Positions 3,255 to 56,936 are shown, numbered from the stretch's first letter. The stretch is DNA of 64,000 bases from an uncultured Chloroflexia bacterium (GCA_963728745.1 CAVSKY010000001.1:329972-393971); one strand, 5' to 3'. Notes: generated by a model not told the origin, from the sequence alone. Translations and numbers: made by a program.

Positions 3255-4742
3255 TCAGGTCCGTCCCTCGGGATCCTCGAGTCCGCCCTCCGCATGCCCA
3301 CTACAGACGAAGGCGTGGGGCGGTGTCGCGGCGTCGATGCGCTCGATGAGCCGCGCGCCGTCACGCCACTCGGCTGCGTCGATCGTGATCTGGACCGCAT
3401 CCGGGCCGTGCAGTCGCCGGGTGTCGCCGTCGTGCACGGCCGCCAGCATGTCCGCGAAGCGGATCGTCAGCCGCTCCGTCGGTGAGAAGCGCAGCGTGAC
3501 AGCGTCCTCGCCGACGACGAGCCGCGCCTTGGGTCCGCGGCCTGGCAGGTGGAACCCGCTCGGTGCGTAGGTGTCGCCGGTCGCCACAGCGGTCGACCAG
3601 TCGGGCACCTGCGTGAGGCGGTCGGGAGCCGGGTTGTCGCCGTTCCCGAAGGCCATGAGCGACTCCAGCGCCGGGCGCATCAGCTCCCGAGCGGCATCCG
3701 GCGTGACTGCCTCGCGCTGACGGATGAAGTCCTCGGGATCGCGGAGTGAATCGCCGAGCAGCACGTCGAACGCGGTCTCGAACACAAAGCCCAGTCGCGC
3801 ATCGTCGTGCTCCCAGCTGCGTCGGACAGCGGTGACCTCGTAGGCAAGCTCCTCGGGTGTCGGTCCGTCGGTCGCGAATTGATCGAGGATCTCCAGCATC
3901 AGGCCCTGGACCCGGCAGGTCTGCCGATCGTCGGCCTCGGTGGTCATCGCGACATGGGCCATGTCGCCGGCGATGCGGTCGTAGTCGAAGTCGACGTCGT
4001 AGACAGCGCCGATGTCGAAGCGAAGGCGTGACCGCATGCGGCGATGGAGGATGTTGGCGACCATGTTCGCCCCAGGCTGCCGCGGCGTCACGTACGTCAG
4101 CGCGACACCAGGCGCGTTCCACTTGACGTAGGCGGGCAGCGTGGTCTCCGCGGCGGACGTGAGAGCGGCCGCCGGGAACCGCTCGCCGTCATGCAGGTTG
4201 AGTCGGATGCCGTCCGGTGGTCCACTGAGCACGAGCACGGCGTTCGAGCGGCCGAAGCGCTCGTCCGCCCACGCCCGCACCAACCCCTCGCCCAGCCACA
4301 GGATCCCGAACTCCTCCTCGGCTGTCGCCCCGGCACCTACACCTCCGAAGCGGTAACCACGAAGCGCATCACCGAGGCCGCGGCTGTTCTCCTCGGCCTC
4401 GCGCCGCAGGATCGATCGCTCGATCAGCAGTCGACTCGTCGGGAGGTTCGCCAACGCGTGCGTCGCGTCGGCGAGGAACGTGCTGACGTCCGCACGTGAT
4501 CCGGTCACCTGGAAGATGGTCCGGAGCGTCTCGACACCGCCGTTGTGCTCGTACTCCTGGACGCCCAGTGGTGCCAGCGCGAGGTGCTCGACGAGATGGG
4601 TGATCCCGTAGCGTGCCGGGGCCTCATCGGCGCGGCCCACGCGGAAGGTCAGTGCGGCGCTGAACGGACCGGGCACGTCCAACCAGTAGGCATCGACGCC
4701 GTCGATCTGGTCATGCTGGATGATGCCGAATGCTGCCGACAC
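3255..4742 (-). CDS. M16 (insulinase/pitrilysin) family metallopeptidase-like protein
   Basis: HxxEH motif (ITHLVEHLA) near the N-terminus in a 495-aa ORF with coding-like GC3. Family assignment from the motif only. Confidence 0.55.
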   Translation of the reverse strand: MSAAFGIIQHDQIDGVDAYWLDVPGPFSAALTFRVGRADEAPARYGITHLVEHLALAPLGVQEYEHNGGVETLRTIFQVTGSRADVSTFLADATHALANLPTSRLLIERSILRREAEENSRGLGDALRGYRFGGVGAGATAEEEFGILWLGEGLVRAWADERFGRSNAVLVLSGPPDGIRLNLHDGERFPAAALTSAAETTLPAYVKWNAPGVALTYVTPRQPGANMVANILHRRMRSRLRFDIGAVYDVDFDYDRIAGDMAHVAMTTEADDRQTCRVQGLMLEILDQFATDGPTPEELAYEVTAVRRSWEHDDARLGFVFETAFDVLLGDSLRDPEDFIRQREAVTPDAARELMRPALESLMAFGNGDNPAPDRLTQVPDWSTAVATGDTYAPSGFHLPGRGPKARLVVGEDAVTLRFSPTERLTIRFADMLAAVHDGDTRRLHGPDAVQITIDAAEWRDGARLIERIDAATPPHAFVCSGHAEGGLEDPEGRT

Positions 4743-4949: not shown

Positions 4950-6410
4950 GTGAGTCGAGACTTCGTGGGCGCCCTCCTTCAGCTGAACGCAGAGAAGCAG
5001 GTCTCGCGCGAGCAGCTCATCGGGGCGGTGGAGGACGGGATCCAGTCCGCCTACCGGCGCGTGGCCGGCGACGAGGACATCCACGTCCGGATCGACGCCG
5101 AATTGGGTCGCATCCGCGTGTACCGTGCGCGTCTCGTCGTCGAGGAGATCGAGGACGAGCTGACCCAGATCCTCGTCGAGGACGCCCGCAAGTTCGACGC
5201 GAACGCCAAGCCCGGTGATGTGGTCGAGACGGAGCAGCTCGACGGGGACGTCTTCGGGCGCATCGGGGCGCAGACCGCCAAGCAGATCGTCCTGCAGCGC
5301 ATCCGGGAGGTCGAGCGCGACCAGGTCTTCGACCAGTTCGCCAGCCGCGAAGGTGAGCTGATCACCGGCACGGTCAACCGTGTCGAGCCGCGCGCGATCA
5401 TCCTCGACGTCGGCAAGAACACCGAGGCGATCCTCGCAACGACCGAGCAGAGCGCGCTCGAGCACTACCGCATCGGCCAGAACGTGAAGGCGTTCGTCCT
5501 CGAGGTCCGCCGGTCCGTGCGCGGGCCACAGATCTTCGTGAGCCGCACGCACAAGGGCTTCCTGCGCCGGCTGTTCGAGCTCGAGGTGCCGGAGATCCAC
5601 AACGGCACGGTCGAGATCAAGGCCATCGCCCGTGAGGCGGGGAGTCGCTCCAAGGTCGGCGTGTCTTCGCGCCAGGACGGGCTCGATCCGGTCGGTGCGA
5701 CCGTCGGTCAGCGCGGGGCGCGCGTGCAGGCCGTCGTTGCGGAGCTCGCCGGCGAGAAGATCGACGTGATCCCATGGAATGAAGACCCGGCGCTGTTCGT
5801 GGCCAATGCGCTGAGTCCTGCCCAGGTCCTGTCGGTCGATATCGACGAGGAGAAGCGGATCGCCTCGGTGACGGTGCCCGAGCGGATGCTGTCGCTGGCG
5901 ATCGGACGCGAGGGCCAGAACGCCCGATTGGCCGCGCGCCTGACCGGCTGGCGGATCGACATCCGCAGCGACGTGTCGGTAGCGGAGGCAAAGGCCGCCG
6001 CCGAGGCGGACGTCACGCAGCCTGCTGCGGCGGAGGCGTCATCGGCCGCTGCCGGTGCGCTCCCTACTGACGCACCGTCGGACGCCGAGGCGGCGGTCAC
6101 TCCTGGAGAAGGCGCGACGGCCGAGCCGGCGCCGGCGAAGCCCAAGCGGACCACCAAGAAGTCGGCTGCGGCCCCCGCGTCCGAAGCGACCGACGGCGTC
6201 ACCGCCGAGGCACCAACAAAGCCGAAGCGGACCACCAAGAAGGCGGCTACAGCCGCGACGACAGAGGCGGCGGACAGCGTCGCCGCGGAGGCGCCGGCGA
6301 AGCCGAAGCGGGCGACGAAGAAGGCCGCGGCATCGGCACCCGACATGCCTGAAGAGCCAGCTGCCGAGACGACGCCGGCCCAGACGCCGCCCGCCGAGGT
6401 GACGTCGTAG
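4950..6410 (+). CDS. nusA: Transcription termination/antitermination factor NusA with a low-complexity basic C-terminal repeat tail
   Basis: NusA N-terminal domain, S1 and KH regions (e.g. GREGQNARLAARLTGWRIDI). GTG 4950 preceded by GGAAGGAGG RBS. Tail has 3 AEAPaKPKRtTKKaA repeats. Confidence 0.9.
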   Translation: MSRDFVGALLQLNAEKQVSREQLIGAVEDGIQSAYRRVAGDEDIHVRIDAELGRIRVYRARLVVEEIEDELTQILVEDARKFDANAKPGDVVETEQLDGDVFGRIGAQTAKQIVLQRIREVERDQVFDQFASREGELITGTVNRVEPRAIILDVGKNTEAILATTEQSALEHYRIGQNVKAFVLEVRRSVRGPQIFVSRTHKGFLRRLFELEVPEIHNGTVEIKAIAREAGSRSKVGVSSRQDGLDPVGATVGQRGARVQAVVAELAGEKIDVIPWNEDPALFVANALSPAQVLSVDIDEEKRIASVTVPERMLSLAIGREGQNARLAARLTGWRIDIRSDVSVAEAKAAAEADVTQPAAAEASSAAAGALPTDAPSDAEAAVTPGEGATAEPAPAKPKRTTKKSAAAPASEATDGVTAEAPTKPKRTTKKAATAATTEAADSVAAEAPAKPKRATKKAAASAPDMPEEPAAETTPAQTPPAEVTS

Positions 6411-13848: not shown

Positions 13849-16437
13849 TTGTCTCAGACGTTCGAGACACAGCTTGGTGGTCGCACGCTGACCATCGAAA
13901 CCGGCAAGCTTGCACGGCTCGCCGGCGGTTCCGTCACCGTCCGCTACGGCGACACCATGGTGCTTGGCACCGCCAACCGCTCCGAGCCCCGCCCCGGGCT
14001 CGACTTCTTCCCGCTCACGGTCGATTTCGAAGAGCGCATGTACGCCGCGGGCAAGATCCCGGGCGGCTTCATCAAGCGGGAGGCGCGTCCGTCGGAGAAC
14101 GCGATCCTCGCCGCCCGACAGACGGACCGGCCGATCCGCCCGCTTTTCCCCGAGGGCTACAAGGACGACGTCCAGCTGGTCATCACGGTCCTCTCGACCG
14201 ACCAGGAGAATCTCCCCGACGTCATCGGCACGATCGCCGCGTCGACGGCCCTGACCATCAGCGAGATCCCGTTCAACGGCCCGGTCGCTTCGGTGCGCGT
14301 CGGTCGGATCGGCGGCGAATTCGTCGTCAACCCGACGTTCAGCCAGCTCGCCGAGTCGGAGCTCGATCTGATCGTCGCCGGCACGCGCGACGCCATCATG
14401 ATGGTCGAAGCGGGCGCCAAGCTCCTGCCCGAGGACGTGATGGCCGAGGCCATCCTGTTCGGCCACCGGTCGCTGCAACCCATCGTCGACCTTCAGGAGG
14501 AGATCCAGAAGGCCTTCGGCAAGGCGAAGCGCATCCCGTACCTCGAGCCGACCACGGGTTCCGTGCTGGAGTTCGCCAGCGCGACGGACGAGAAGCGCGA
14601 GCTGGTCGTCCTCGACGTCGAGACGACGGGCACCGATCCCAAGATGTCCGACCTCCTCGAGGTCGCTGCGGTCAAGGTCAAGGGCACCGAGATCGTCGAT
14701 CGCTGGTCGACGTTCGTGAATCCCGGCCGGCCGATCGTCGGCAACCAGATGCACGGCATCACCGACAAAGACGTGCAAGGGGCACCGACCGCGCGCGAAG
14801 CCGCTGATCAGCTGCTCGCGTTCGTGGGCGACGCCAAGATCGTGGGTCACAACGTCGGCTTCGACCTGGCCTTCATCGAAGATGCCAAGGGCGACGGGTT
14901 CAGATTCGAGCCCGGCACGTACCTCGATACGCTGGTCATCGCCCGCGAAGGCTATCCGGGCGCCGAGTCATACAAGCTCGGCGACCTTGCGCGCTTCTTC
15001 GGTGTCGAGCTCAGCCAGGGCCATCGGGCGCTGCCTGACGCCGAGGCCACCGCCAACCTCCTGATCTGGTTCGCCAACGACCTGCCGGGTCGCATCTCGA
15101 CCCTGCGCACGGCGATCGCCGACGGGGTCCGCGCCCAGCGCAACGGTGGCGACACCGCCAGCCTGCTCGAGGCCGCTCGCCGCGACGCGCGGGTGAGCAA
15201 GAACCTGTTCAGCCTCGTCCAGAAGAAGACCGTCCGCCAGCTCGTCCTCGACGAGGGCATCCGCATCGACGGCCGCGGCCTGACGGACATCCGTCCGATC
15301 AGCGTCGAGGTCGGTCTCGTGCCGCGGGCCCATGGTTCCGGTTTGTTCACGCGCGGTGACACCCAGGCCCTGACGGTCGCCACGCTCGGATCGTCCTCGG
15401 ACGTCCAGCGGATCGACACGATCAGCCCGGAGACCGAGAAGCGCTATCTCCACCACTACAACTTCCCGCCGTACAGCACCGGCGAGAACAAGCCGATGCG
15501 TGGACCCAGCCGTCGCGACATCGGTCATGGCCATCTCGCGGAGCGGGCCCTCGTCCCGGTCCTCCCGGACCATGACGAGTTCCCGTACGTCATCCGGCTC
15601 GTGAGCGAGTGCGTGACGTCGAATGGTTCGACCTCGATGGCGTCGACCTGCGGATCGACCCTCGCCCTGATGGACGCCGGCGTGCCGATCAAGGCGCCGG
15701 TCGCCGGCGCCGCGATGGGTCTCATCAGCGAGCCCGACGGCCGCTTCGTCGTCCTCACCGACATCCTGGGCAAGGAGGACTCGATCGGGGACATGGACTT
15801 CAAGGTGACCGGGACGCGGGACGGCGTGACGGCCCTCCAGATGGACATCAAGGTCCAGGGCATCAGCGAGGCGATCATCCGCGATGGACTCAAGCAGGCC
15901 CTCGCGGCTCGGCTCGAGATCCTCGACAAGATGACCGCGGTGCTGCCCGAGGCCCGCGTGGAGATGAGCGACTTCGCGCCGCGCATCATCACGATCAAGA
16001 TCAACCCCGAGAAGATCCGCGACATCATCGGCAAGGGCGGATCGATGATCCGCAAGATCCAGGAAGAGACCCAGACCGAGATCAACGTCGAGGACGACGG
16101 CACCGTGGAGATCGCGGCCGTCTCGGGCGAGAACTCGCGCAAGGCGATCCAATGGATCGAGTCGCTGACTCGCGAGGTCGAGATCGGCGCGCTCTATCTC
16201 GGCAAGGTCACCCGCATCATGGGCTTCGGCGCATTCGTCGAGATCCTGCCCGGCAAGGAGGGCCTCGTCCGGATCGGCGAGCTCGCCGACTACCACGTGC
16301 CCACTGTCGAGGACGTTGTGTCCGTCGGCGATGAGGTGATGGTCGTCGTGACCGAGATCGACCGCCAGGGCCGTGTGAACCTATCGCGCAAGGCCGCGAT
16401 GCAGCGCCACCTGGCCAAGGAGCCGGTCGGGAGCTGA
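13849..16437 (+). CDS. pnp: Polyribonucleotide nucleotidyltransferase (PNPase) with an inserted DnaQ-like DEDDh 3'-5' exonuclease domain (aa ~250-412)
   Basis: RNase PH domain 1, then LVVLDVETTG (Exo I), IVGHNVGFDLAF (Exo II), GHRALPDAEA (Exo III), then RNase PH domain 2, KH (IGKGGSMIRKIQE), S1. TTG start with AAGGAGG RBS. 862 aa versus about 700-740 typical. Confidence 0.9.
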   Translation: MSQTFETQLGGRTLTIETGKLARLAGGSVTVRYGDTMVLGTANRSEPRPGLDFFPLTVDFEERMYAAGKIPGGFIKREARPSENAILAARQTDRPIRPLFPEGYKDDVQLVITVLSTDQENLPDVIGTIAASTALTISEIPFNGPVASVRVGRIGGEFVVNPTFSQLAESELDLIVAGTRDAIMMVEAGAKLLPEDVMAEAILFGHRSLQPIVDLQEEIQKAFGKAKRIPYLEPTTGSVLEFASATDEKRELVVLDVETTGTDPKMSDLLEVAAVKVKGTEIVDRWSTFVNPGRPIVGNQMHGITDKDVQGAPTAREAADQLLAFVGDAKIVGHNVGFDLAFIEDAKGDGFRFEPGTYLDTLVIAREGYPGAESYKLGDLARFFGVELSQGHRALPDAEATANLLIWFANDLPGRISTLRTAIADGVRAQRNGGDTASLLEAARRDARVSKNLFSLVQKKTVRQLVLDEGIRIDGRGLTDIRPISVEVGLVPRAHGSGLFTRGDTQALTVATLGSSSDVQRIDTISPETEKRYLHHYNFPPYSTGENKPMRGPSRRDIGHGHLAERALVPVLPDHDEFPYVIRLVSECVTSNGSTSMASTCGSTLALMDAGVPIKAPVAGAAMGLISEPDGRFVVLTDILGKEDSIGDMDFKVTGTRDGVTALQMDIKVQGISEAIIRDGLKQALAARLEILDKMTAVLPEARVEMSDFAPRIITIKINPEKIRDIIGKGGSMIRKIQEETQTEINVEDDGTVEIAAVSGENSRKAIQWIESLTREVEIGALYLGKVTRIMGFGAFVEILPGKEGLVRIGELADYHVPTVEDVVSVGDEVMVVVTEIDRQGRVNLSRKAAMQRHLAKEPVGS

Positions 16438-16744
16438 CGTTCCCTGCCACCAGACGTTCCGGTCGACCGGTCGGCGCCTTCGGGCCCGGCCGGTCGTCCG
16501 ATTCTGGTCCCGCAGCGCGATATGTGCTCGAATTCCGATGGGGTCGGAAGATCCGCGGCTAGGGCGCCGTAACGGACCCATCCCGCCCCCTTCGGCGCCG
16601 TCCCCCCGCACGGAAGATGCGGCGGTCAGGTCGTTGTGACCCTCGTAGCCCCGATTCTTCCAGTGGGAGCGGAAATGGAGTCAATACGGCCTCGCGGCTT
16701 GAAGCGACCCGGCTGGCCGACGGCGGATCGTGTGTACGCCCGGC

Positions 16745-16918
16745 CGCTCGTGGAACGCCCCATGTTCCGAGCGACCGGCGAGGGACTGTTGCACGGGCGA
16801 GCGGAGGTCGATCAAGGACGTTCCTCGACCGATCGGCACGCCGGACGTGCCGAACGACGGCCGAGTGCCCGAGCGCATTCGCTCAGCCGCCGCTCGGAAC
16901 GCCCCACGTTCCAGCGGC
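16745..16918. repeat. Cluster A of GGAAC-N7-GTTCC hairpin palindromes (two full copies at 16745-16774 and 16888-16918, one half-site at 16816-16824)
   Basis: gctcgTGGAACgccccatGTTCCgagcg and gctcgGAACgccccacGTTCCagcgg, near-identical 30-nt elements each forming an 11-12 bp stem. Confidence 0.6.
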
Positions 16919-17024
16919 ATGGCAATGCGCGATCCGGCGGGTGACCCAGCGCAGCGGTCGGTGTCGATGATGCCCGCTGCTATACTCCCGCCGTGCCCGA
17001 CGTGATCAAGACCACAGCGGAGCC

Positions 17025-45703: not shown

Positions 45704-45725
45704 GAGGCGTGCCAGCTCGCCGGCA

Positions 45726-45900
45726 CGTGGAACGTCACGCGTTCCGACCGACGGCTGAGCTGCGCGAAACGAGCGCGAAGCCGGCCATTCCTCGGTCGTT
45801 TGGAACGCGCAGAGTTCCGATCAGCGGCTGAGGAGCAGGATCCCGCCCGCTCCTTCGTCGCTTGGAACGTGGGACGTTCCTGGCGATGTGCACGTTCCGA
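45726..45900. repeat. Cluster B of GGAAC-N7-GTTCC hairpin palindromes (three full copies and one half-site)
   Basis: cacgTGGAACgtcacgcGTTCCgaccg, tttGGAACgcgcagaGTTCCgatc, cttGGAACgtgggacGTTCCtgg, gcacGTTCCgacc. Confidence 0.6.
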
Positions 45901-45950
45901 CCATTCGTGGCATCGTTGCGTCTGCAACGACACGCCGGAGGGACGCCCAC

Positions 45951-46520: not shown

Positions 46521-46862
46521 ATGCAACACCAACTCGACGCCGTCTTCGGCGCACTCGCCGACCCAACCCGACGCGCGATCCTCGCGCGGCTGGCGGAGGG
46601 GGACGCGAGTGTCTTCGAGCTGACCGCACCGTTCGACGTCTCCCAGCCGGCGATCTCGAAGCACCTCAAGGTGCTCGAGGCCGCCGGGCTCATCTCGCGC
46701 ACGCGGAAGGCCACCGCACGACTCAGCCATCTCGAGGCGGATCCCCTCAAGAAGGCTACCGAGTGGCTCGTCGGCTATCGCGAGTACTGGGAGGAGAGCC
46801 ACGAGCGCCTCGACGCGCTGCTGGCTGCTCTCCAGGTCACCAGCAAGGAAAGGAAGCCATGA
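46521..46862 (+). CDS. arsR: ArsR/SmtB family transcriptional regulator
   Basis: LADPTRRAILARLAEGDASVFELTAPFDVSQPAISKHLKVLEAAGLI HTH. Confidence 0.88.
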   Translation: MQHQLDAVFGALADPTRRAILARLAEGDASVFELTAPFDVSQPAISKHLKVLEAAGLISRTRKATARLSHLEADPLKKATEWLVGYREYWEESHERLDALLAALQVTSKERKP

Positions 46863-55845: not shown

Positions 55846-56468
55846 TGGCTGCGACCCCGGACAAGGACGACGGTCTCAAGCGGCTCGGCGGCGGCCGCTG
55901 GCAGTCCCGCGACGAGCGCTTCACCATCGAGCCGCAATCGGGGACCTGGGCGGTCGTTGATGCCGAGCAGACAGATGACCTGGGCTTGCCGCTGGTGCGC
56001 GGCCCGTTCAAGAGCCTGACCGCCGCGAAGGCCGCGATCGGCGAGGCGCGGGGCACGGAGGCACCGACATCGTCGCTCAGATCGCGACCGGCGCCGACGG
56101 CCGAGAAACCGACGAAGGCATCCAAGGTCGCAGCGTCGGAACCCGAAGAACCCAAGGAGCCGCGCTGGATGCGCGACCTCGAACCGGCCGATCGACGGCG
56201 GGCCGCTCGGCTCATCGAGCTGCTCACCAAGGCCGACGCGTCCGACGCGGAAGGCATGGCCCGCCGCGACATGGTCGGTGACGTGCCGGCCGTGGCGGGG
56301 TTCGCCGTCGAGCGGGCGATCCGGGGGCTCGGGTCGAAGGCGACGCCGGGCGCGGTCGCCGACCTGCTTGCCGACGGGCGCGACAGCGAGCTCGGGGTGC
56401 GGTGGCGCCTCGTCGATGGCGATGGCCGCCCGATCTCTATCGAGACCGACGCACTCCAGAAGGAGTGA
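55845..56468 (+). CDS. Hypothetical protein
   Basis: ATG overlaps the upstream stop (TGATG). Charged, Ala-rich, no motif. Confidence 0.5.
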   Translation: MAATPDKDDGLKRLGGGRWQSRDERFTIEPQSGTWAVVDAEQTDDLGLPLVRGPFKSLTAAKAAIGEARGTEAPTSSLRSRPAPTAEKPTKASKVAASEPEEPKEPRWMRDLEPADRRRAARLIELLTKADASDAEGMARRDMVGDVPAVAGFAVERAIRGLGSKATPGAVADLLADGRDSELGVRWRLVDGDGRPISIETDALQKE

Positions 56469-56483
56469 CACCCGCTGGCTGCC

Positions 56484-56640
56484 GCTGGAACATGCCGATG
56501 TTCCAAGCGACGAAGGAAGGGGCAGAAGCCACTCGCTCCACCGCTATTTGGAATATCCACACGTTCCAAACGGCCAACGAGGGCATGATTCCTGCCCATT
56601 TCGCCGGTCTCCTTCGCTGATCGGCACATCGGGATGTTCC
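56484..56640. repeat. Cluster C of GGAAC/GTTCC hairpin palindromes (two full copies with 8-nt spacer and one half-site)
   Basis: gcTGGAACatgccgatGTTCCAagc, ttTGGAATatccacacGTTCCAaa, gatGTTCCAaacg. Begins 16 nt after the upstream stop and ends 39 nt before the HTH gene. Confidence 0.6.
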
Positions 56641-56678
56641 AAACGCACATCGGCACCATCTGGCATACCGTGCGACCC

Positions 56679-56936
56679 ATGGACGATCACCTTTCGACCG
56701 AGCACGTCGCCTGGATCCTCGATCGCTCGCCGGAAGCGGTCCGCGACATGATCCGCGACGGCGAGATCGAGGGGGCACGGATTCCCGCTGGCTTCCGGAT
56801 CCCCAAGGCAGAGGCGCTTCGACTCGCCCGCGAGCGGATCGAGGCCGAGGCCGGTCGGAAGATGTCCGATCGTCAGCTGGAGCGCGTGATCGACGAGCTC
56901 ATCGCGACGAACGAGGAGCGCCGCGAGCGCTCCTGA
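56679..56936 (+). CDS. Excisionase/MerR-family helix-turn-helix DNA-binding protein
   Basis: LSTEHVAWILDRSPEAVRDMIRDGEIEGARIPAGFRIPKAEALRL matches the excisionase-family HTH domain. Confidence 0.65.
   Translation: MDDHLSTEHVAWILDRSPEAVRDMIRDGEIEGARIPAGFRIPKAEALRLARERIEAEAGRKMSDRQLERVIDELIATNEERRERS

Follow-up and report, generated by a model that had tools for sequence, protein, structure and literature searches.

The window, by which we mean the whole 64-kb stretch of DNA that was analysed, comes from an uncultured soil Chloroflexota bacterium. It is 69% G+C and about 88% coding by our own GC3-based gene calls, and three of its intergenic spacers carry clusters of the palindromic motif GGAAC-N7/8-GTTCC. 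Cluster A lies between pnp and asd, cluster B between a DUF1801 gene and a gene for an F420H2-dependent quinone reductase, and cluster C between an unannotated ORF (stop at 56468) and a gene (56679-56936) encoding an HTH_17 protein of 85 residues. Exact matches to GGAAC-N{6,8}-GTTCC begin at 16752, 16896, 45729, 45802, 45864 and 56487, and all have a spacer of seven or eight nucleotides. A chance origin of the motif is rejected by the comparison of these six matches with an expectation of 0.13, a count of six being reached by none of 100 dinucleotide-preserving shuffles. Allowing one or two mismatches adds three degenerate units (GGCAC..GTGCC at 16835, GGAAT..GTTCC at 56550 and GGCAC..GTTCC at 56623), all within the same clusters, for a total of nine units, every one of them intergenic. 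As short (20-40 bp), imperfect, extragenic palindromes present in multiple copies, the units have the general features of REP and REPIN sequences.

An earlier sequence-only reading of this DNA had described two nearly identical elements in cluster A, a recurrence of their core near 45.7 and 56.5 kb and a purely intergenic placement, and had proposed a comparison with chance frequency. These observations hold: both elements of cluster A were found where reported, with cores identical at 16 of 17 positions, exact matches recur in both other regions, no copy falls in coding sequence despite the high coding share, and the excess over shuffled sequence is clear. The three half-sites that it also listed are better described otherwise. 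The one at 16817 (GGACGTTCC) is a linker motif conserved across the family, that at 56630 is the right half of the degenerate third unit of cluster C, and that at 45887 (CACGTTCC) is native flank, which relatives without the element also have in the form CCCGTTC.

Architecture of the composite module

Clusters A, B and C align end to end over 170-190 nt with 69% column identity; by this alignment they represent three copies of a single composite module, non-coding and about 150-190 bp long. The module usually contains three dyad-symmetric units, with a range of two to five per array. Each unit has the core TGGAAC-N7/8-GTTCCA, symmetric proximal flanks approximating AAGCGACG(A/G), and symmetric tails on both sides of the core that approximate AAGCGACGGCTGAG or AAGCGACGAAGGA. 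Unit 3 with its flank is an inverted copy of unit 1, the 32-nt arms being 78-81% complementary; the units themselves are almost symmetric, and their inversion is visible from the flanks only. The same architecture runs throughout an alignment of 16 copies, in which the linker motifs, namely the AAGCGACGGCTGAG-like tails and a (C)GTTC(C) column, are also kept. Clustered palindromic units with conserved linker motifs between them are characteristic of BIMEs, and a small non-coding element (150-190 bp) bounded by terminal inverted repeats (the 32-nt arms) is characteristic of MITEs.

Module A (16736-16925; neither modules nor units are assigned a strand) is a full three-unit copy in the pnp-asd spacer, with nhmmer E-values of 1.4e-38 for a three-copy profile and 2.3e-26 for the 16-copy profile. 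Its outer units A1 (16751-16769, TGGAAC-GCCCCAT-GTTCCG) and A3 (16895-16913, CGGAAC-GCCCCAC-GTTCCA) are exact matches, with DNA folds of -9.4 kcal/mol (z=-2.1) and -14.3 kcal/mol (z=-4.2), respectively. Unit A2 (16834-16852, CGGCAC-GCCGGAC-GTGCCG) is a degenerate, two-mismatch match that aligns to unit 2 of modules B and C, and its A>C and T>G changes are symmetric. The A1-A2 spacing is 83 bp and the A2-A3 spacing 61 bp, and the linker motif at 16817-16825 falls on the (C)GTTC(C) column, nearly invariant across the 16 copies, that precedes unit 2.

Module B (45713-45893; E=4.3e-47 and 5e-36 for the three- and 16-copy profiles) is likewise a full copy, in which units B1 (45728-45746), B2 (45801-45819, 73 bp from B1) and B3 (45863-45881, 62 bp from B2) are all exact matches. 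B2 folds no better than shuffles (z=+0.48). B3 with its flank is an inverted B1, and the 32-nt arms at 45729-45760 and 45849-45880 are 78% complementary. Module C (56472-56646; E=1.2e-34 and 3.7e-29) is a full copy in which all three units have an eight-nucleotide spacer: C1 (56486-56505, TGGAAC-N8-GTTCCA) is an exact match, C2 (56549-56568, TGGAAT-N8-GTTCCA) lies 63 bp from C1, and C3 (56622-56641, CGGCAC-N8-GTTCCA) lies 73 bp from C2. C3 with its flank is an inverted C1, the 32-nt arms at 56486-56517 and 56610-56641 being 81% complementary.

Units within single arrays often share loop sequence as well as equal spacing, which suggests local duplication of units or concerted evolution inside arrays. 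Shared loops include GCCCCAG-type loops at spacings of 60/61 in L066 and two copies of TTCCCGAT at 73/72.5 in L102, and equal spacings are found in L094 (51/51/52), L012 (72/72) and L105 (41/41).

Distribution and insertion polymorphism

At 90% identity, the pnp and asd proteins of the window cluster with sequences that, where named, come from Candidatus Limnocylindrales, phylum Chloroflexota. Profiles built from the window copies retrieved the complete three-unit module from MAGs of at least 10 Chloroflexota species, with E-values down to 1e-39 and carriers labelled uncultured Chloroflexia, Chloroflexota or Limnocylindrales. When 185,579 species genomes were scanned for pairs of cores separated by 35-65 nt, at least 117 stretches matched, and most of those listed are unrelated repeats. 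The module is confined to part of the Chloroflexota, in relatives of Candidatus Limnocylindrales. Viral contigs yielded unrelated repeats only and no module, on which ground a phage origin is rejected.

Synteny of pnp and asd is kept in relatives with 70-89% asd identity. The spacer between the two genes is 588 nt in the window versus mostly 105-190 nt in about 20 syntenic relatives; module A was found in none of these, and no module was found at 80 asd loci totalling 368 kb. The closest relative, L209 (89-95% nucleotide identity), also lacks module A, carries the family elsewhere, and has a cyclase gene in this spacer. There the segment corresponding to 16497-16972 of the window is replaced by one of about 900 nt with a guanylate cyclase gene. 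The stretch just after the pnp stop (16437-16500 in the window, 8985-9055 in L209) contains a GC-rich palindrome, GGTCGACCGGTCGG...CCGGCCGGTCG, and the motif GACGTTCC twice. Overall this stretch aligns at about 95% with L209, where only the first GACGTTCC is intact, and it is native sequence outside module A.

The sites of modules B and C are empty in three syntenic genomes (L199-L201), and the DUF1801-quinone reductase spacer measures 248 nt in the window versus 70 nt without the element in L200 and L201. Site C is also empty in L210 and is occupied by an orthologous copy in L211. Between the window's module C and that copy, half-site bases are 19/20 identical versus 57% elsewhere and unit spacings are 63/73 versus 63/72, in flanking DNA that is 79% identical. 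At two further syntenic MAG loci, L063 and L113, the module lies on opposite sides of the same tRNA-Leu gene, upstream of tig, and the two copies appear to be independent insertions. Given the empty orthologous sites and the placement around tRNA-Leu, the family is a dispersed repeat with insertion polymorphism, as opposed to a conserved operator; the module is gained or lost as a unit and is no conserved cis-regulator of the genes beside it. Such presence/absence polymorphism at orthologous sites is a further property of MITEs.

No fixed-length target-site duplication was found consistently at five filled/empty junctions. The insertion in L113 (reverse complement, ~3825-4075) has on its two sides an imperfect direct repeat, about 20 nt long (CCAACCCGGACGGTGGTT and CCAGCCGGACGGCGGTT), a sequence that occurs once at the empty L063 site; the other insertions show no such duplication. 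Pfam scans of the coding-like ORFs of the window and of the neighbours of 17 arrays revealed no RAYT, transposase or recombinase, and no related autonomous IS was found.

Gene context of the arrays

The genes beside the arrays are functionally unrelated, and include asd, tig, ftsZ, rny, obg and genes for an ABC-F ATPase, glycerate kinase, DinB_2, HTH_17, F420H2-dependent quinone reductase and homocysteine methyltransferase, among others. Both neighbours are known for 15 arrays: 12 of these have co-directional genes on either side, three fill convergent 3'-3' spacers (L066, L069 and L012) and none is in a divergent spacer. All 15 thus abut at least one gene 3' end, and many arrays begin 4-50 nt past a stop codon or tRNA end. 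The same 3'-end bias has been reported for REPs (Di Nocera et al. 2013, PMC3733652), and the clustering of arrays after gene 3' ends leaves room for an RNA-level or terminator-targeting role.

Several features of the surrounding genes lie outside the modules. A conserved TATACT -10-like box of asd (16981-16986, + strand) is located downstream of module A; it is present upstream of asd in the window (16976-16998) and in all relatives, and the block GCTG(C/G)TATA(C/A)TC...CGTG.CC is kept in six element-free relatives and in L209. A role of the module as a conserved asd regulator is rejected, the box being outside the module and the module missing in all relatives. The same box occurs 9 nt before the tig ATG in two MAGs (L063, ~5640-5660, and L113), a position that suggests a leaderless tig mRNA there. 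Just upstream of the quinone reductase gene, a perfect inverted repeat, CGTTGC-GTCT-GCAACG (45914-45929), is kept in relatives without module B and may be an operator; an ArsR-family gene lies downstream (46521-46862). The polynucleotide phosphorylase encoded by pnp (862 aa; 13849-16437, + strand) has an unusual architecture, in which the two RNase PH cores are separated by an inserted RNase_T/DEDD exonuclease domain (PF00929, E=7.7e-27, aa 253-405), and members of its 90% cluster are named either PNPase or 'DNA polymerase III epsilon subunit family exonuclease'.

The location of module C, 33 nt upstream of the HTH_17 gene, bears on an account in which the units are regulon operators, that is, sites evolved in place upstream of co-regulated genes and bound by HTH_17 or another transcription factor. 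The units are dyad-symmetric and in helical phase, 12 of the arrays precede a gene start by 33-280 nt, and another small MerR-like protein, BldC (68 residues), is reported to bind repeat arrays cooperatively (PMC5859096), all of which would suit such sites. However, operators of a regulon should keep their position upstream of orthologous targets with coherent functions, and neither was seen: the sites are missing from orthologous promoters of close relatives, the conserved asd box is outside the module, the functions of the neighbours are unrelated, three arrays occupy convergent spacers, and homology between copies runs on through the linkers. The HTH_17 protein itself is highly conserved, with 73-91% identity among the best 120 of 573 homologues, and is present in genomes whose sampled loci have no arrays. 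Of five orthologous HTH_17 loci examined, four (L199, L200, L201 and L210) lack the array although the protein is 80-91% identical there. An autoregulatory operator or an HTH_17 regulon is rejected on this basis, and neither binding by this protein, which the earlier reading had put forward for testing, nor a specific tie between the HTH_17 protein and the module family is supported.

The ORF upstream of HTH_17 abuts or overlaps the HTH_17 gene in two of three syntenic genomes; the two overlap in L200 and probably in L201, where the upstream ORF was not called. The corresponding ORF of the window, split from HTH_17 by module C, has a different C-terminus and its own stop (56466-56468), and a TGgCATACC box lies 9 nt before the HTH_17 ATG.

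Spacing between units

Centre-to-centre spacings between units are quantised, with values of 31.5, 41, 51-52, 60-63, 72-73, 83 and 93 bp, and a linear fit to this ladder gives 10.35 bp per step with an intercept of -0.1 (n = 3-9 turns). For a modest sample of 39 intervals from about 16 loci, in which some intervals within an array may share ancestry, the Rayleigh R is 0.93 at 10.3-10.5 bp and was exceeded by none of 2000 random sets; when only the seven class values are used, none of 5000 random sets reaches the observed value. The scan pattern was open to any linker of 35-65 nt, yet within this range the family is limited to lengths of 43-45 and 55-56. Where linkers have the same length, their central parts share just 41-51% identity, while the lengths stay fixed. 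An unrelated Burkholderiales repeat recovered by the same scan pattern serves as a control and has continuous spacings of 71-78. This abundant palindromic repeat of Burkholderiales MAGs consists of pairs of GGAACGCTTGCGGTTCC / GGAACCGCAAGCGTTCC, 71-78 nt apart, with up to eight per 6.6 kb, and is found at loci L010, L022, L026, L028, L047, L051, L060, L078, L090 and L099.

The locking of spacing to whole helical turns favours recognition of duplex DNA by a protein, and the combination of conserved half-sites, conserved linker length, free linker sequence and integral-turn spacing is the hallmark of protein sites that share a single face of duplex DNA. The sequence-only reading had taken the variation of the core spacer between seven and eight nucleotides as an argument for a hairpin over a fixed-geometry operator; this variation is not decisive, and the spacing between units is the stronger geometric signal.

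Folding and pairing potential

The main rival to a role as duplex DNA is the classic REP/REPIN model, in which the units would act as single-stranded DNA or RNA hairpins mobilised by a RAYT (an IS200/IS605-like Y1 transposase) encoded elsewhere, and in which hairpins in 3'-UTRs would stabilise or terminate transcripts. Several properties of the family fit this model. The units are palindromic, units 1 and 3 form a REPIN-like inverted pair, and six of the nine units in the window fold as single DNA strands clearly better than shuffles, with stabilities across the nine that range from -14.3 to -1.6 kcal/mol. Whole modules, folded as RNA, form long imperfect hairpins that pair unit 1 with unit 3 and beat shuffles with z from -3.6 to -4.5. 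The location of arrays at gene 3' ends, often within 4-50 nt of a stop or tRNA end and with no confirmed divergent spacer, is also the bias that Di Nocera et al. describe for REPs. For the cores of cluster A, the fold described in the earlier reading is recovered as a single-strand structure of 11-13 pairs with a bulge, enclosing a loop of 5 nt and not of 6-7 nt as had been given.

Tests for maintenance of these hairpins by selection gave a different result. RNAalifold reports apparent covariation at the pair adjoining the core (AU 10, GC 3, CG 1), and among 45 units aligned on their dyads this pair (d=3) is Watson-Crick in 60% versus 33% after global shuffling. Shuffling within loci gives 58% versus the observed 60% (p=0.38). 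Because the observed value does not significantly exceed that of the within-locus shuffle, the signal represents a locus-level preference for A..T or G..C and not compensation, and covariation in support of a hairpin is rejected. The symmetric flanks are paired in only 20-60% of the 45 units, no better than shuffles, and unit-specific compensatory changes of the kind that maintain a REP stem were not found. The remaining three of the nine units fold no better than shuffled sequence despite intact half-sites, and the hairpin interpretation of the earlier reading is not supported. An unpaired GTAG or CGTC tetranucleotide at one end, as found in REPs (PMC3733652), is absent, as is a RAYT in the 64 kb or beside 17 arrays. 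Across the three module regions there are no terminator-like sites with the U-tract of an intrinsic terminator, and the hairpin model provides no reason for quantisation of linkers at about 10.35 nt with zero intercept. Given this balance, we consider the classic hairpin model rather unlikely.

Other identities were also considered. No sigma-70-type promoters were found inside the modules, and the window has no Rfam match at gathering level; a known RNA family, tRNA or tmRNA was not found and is rejected as the identity of the elements. A CRISPR-like array is likewise rejected, the units being palindromic and degenerate, present in two to five per site, and inverted at the third position.

Discussion

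The features observed directly are a repeat family, homology over whole modules, presence or absence at orthologous sites and a ladder of spacings, together with conservation of half-sites and linker length and not of linker sequence. With moderate confidence, we interpret them as a dispersed, insertion-polymorphic BIME/MITE-like module of helically phased dyad sites that most likely serves as a duplex-DNA platform for a dimeric protein. The sequence-only reading had left the choice between a REP/BIME-like family and a regulon operator. The repeat family in BIME-like clusters is upheld by its abundance above chance and its intergenic placement, whereas the operator fails at the empty orthologous sites and the hairpin mechanism attached to the repeat reading finds no support.

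Protein binding, cooperativity and the means by which the module moves are what we infer beyond these observations. The conserved features would be read as duplex DNA, a dimeric protein would bind each dyad, and the bound dimers would touch adjacent ones on a single helix face, through cooperative binding or through wrapping of the DNA. The candidate binder could be the enzyme responsible for spreading the module; alternatively, it could be a nucleoid or topology factor of the host, like those that occupy E. coli BIMEs. Several results weigh against this duplex platform. The core spacer is seven or eight nucleotides long, a variation that a rigid dimer would not tolerate; target-site duplications are not consistent, and neither the window nor the neighbourhood of the arrays contains a transposase, RAYT or recombinase; placement of 15 of 15 arrays at gene 3' ends is the classic pattern of transcribed REP hairpins; and whole modules fold better than shuffles as RNA.

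Beyond the hairpin model discussed above, the arrangement of the units also recalls site-specific recombination. The units would then be core-type sites in which inverted recombinase arms surround a 7-8 bp overlap, and the arrays would form when small circles integrate at pseudo-sites or would be invertible segments bounded by units 1 and 3. Inverted arms around a centre of variable length (7-8 bp) fit this scheme, as does the inversion of units 1 and 3 in several copies including their asymmetric centres (e.g., CAC versus GTG), and empty sites contain half-site-like sequence (GGACGT in L113, CCCGTTC in L200 and L201). Three phased dimer sites also resemble the architecture of resolvase res or accessory sites. 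The scheme draws on resemblance only, however: no recombinase gene is near any array, the assemblies give no evidence of alternative orientations, and the outer units are not visibly hybrid. We regard it as improbable. The regulon operator, already largely refuted by the empty orthologous promoters, is the least credible of these accounts and can be given very little weight.

Bacterial genomes commonly contain small dispersed palindromic repeats, whose function is seldom clear, and the module offers an unusually clean geometric clue. The intervening sequence drifts almost to randomness, whereas the half-sites and the distances between sites stay constant, and these distances are whole turns. 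It is possible, although we advance this more tentatively than the duplex platform itself, that the family represents a previously undescribed kind of dispersed repeat, a portable platform of dyad sites on one helix face that is read on the duplex by a mechanism unlike that of the single-strand hairpin REP/RAYT system. Its partner may be a recombinase or transposase that spreads it, or a nucleoid or topology factor recruited to gene 3' ends. If the duplex platform is correct, a sequence-specific protein should assemble on one face of the DNA, and an insertion of 5 bp between sites should break the assembly where one of 10 bp should not. The module would then offer a way into the study of genome organisation or of mobile DNA in Candidatus Limnocylindria, a class of Chloroflexota represented here by uncultured MAGs and metagenome contigs only. 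If the hairpin reading is right, it adds one more REP-like family.

Comparison with known systems

Closest in appearance are the BIMEs of E. coli and other enterobacteria, which also consist of clustered extragenic palindromic units with semi-conserved linkers, are found mainly downstream of gene 3' ends, where the neighbouring genes are co-directional or convergent, and vary between strains. BIMEs of E. coli are bound as duplex DNA by IHF, DNA gyrase and Pol I. Unlike BIMEs, the module has no GTAG or CGTC tag, RAYT or stem covariation; its modal unit number is three; its units are nearly perfectly symmetric, so that unit orientation is ill-defined; and its spacing is quantised in whole helical turns, for which we know of no report in BIMEs. 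In the literature searched, neither the motif nor repeats in Limnocylindria were reported, nor was a quantisation of REP/BIME arrays in helical turns.

MITEs such as the Correia elements of Neisseria, the enterobacterial ERIC sequences and the SNRs of Deinococcus share with the module a length of about 100-200 bp, the absence of coding sequence, terminal inverted repeats, dispersed intergenic location and polymorphism between relatives. The module differs from them in having neither a consistent target-site duplication nor a parent IS with matching ends (none was found), in containing an internal third copy of its terminal repeat, and in ranging from two to five units.

The GTAG- and CGTC-tagged REPs are short intergenic palindromes as well, and are often arranged in dimers or clusters capable of folding into larger structures (PMC3733652). 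CGTC REPs have stems of 8-9 bp and loops of 4-5 nt (PMC3733652). The GTAG-23 family of Thermomicrobium roseum, which belongs to the only REP superfamily reported for Chloroflexi by Di Nocera et al. 2013, is largely clustered and occupies large blocks at few loci (PMC3733652), whereas the module family is dispersed. In the module the unpaired end tag is absent, and CGTC/GACG occurs symmetrically on both flanks. The family has the descriptive features of BIMEs, REPs and MITEs, and departs from them in the mechanistic features tested, namely the tag, covariation and fixed duplication.

Finally, the res site of Tn3/gamma-delta, with its three resolvase dimer sites, and the plasmid centromere sopC of F resemble the module in grouping several dimer-binding inverted repeats within about 120-500 bp, where helical phase matters for assembly. 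These are single-copy functional sites beside their own recombinase or partition genes; in contrast, the module has no cognate gene nearby, is chromosomal and multi-copy, and varies its spacing by integral turns of the helix.
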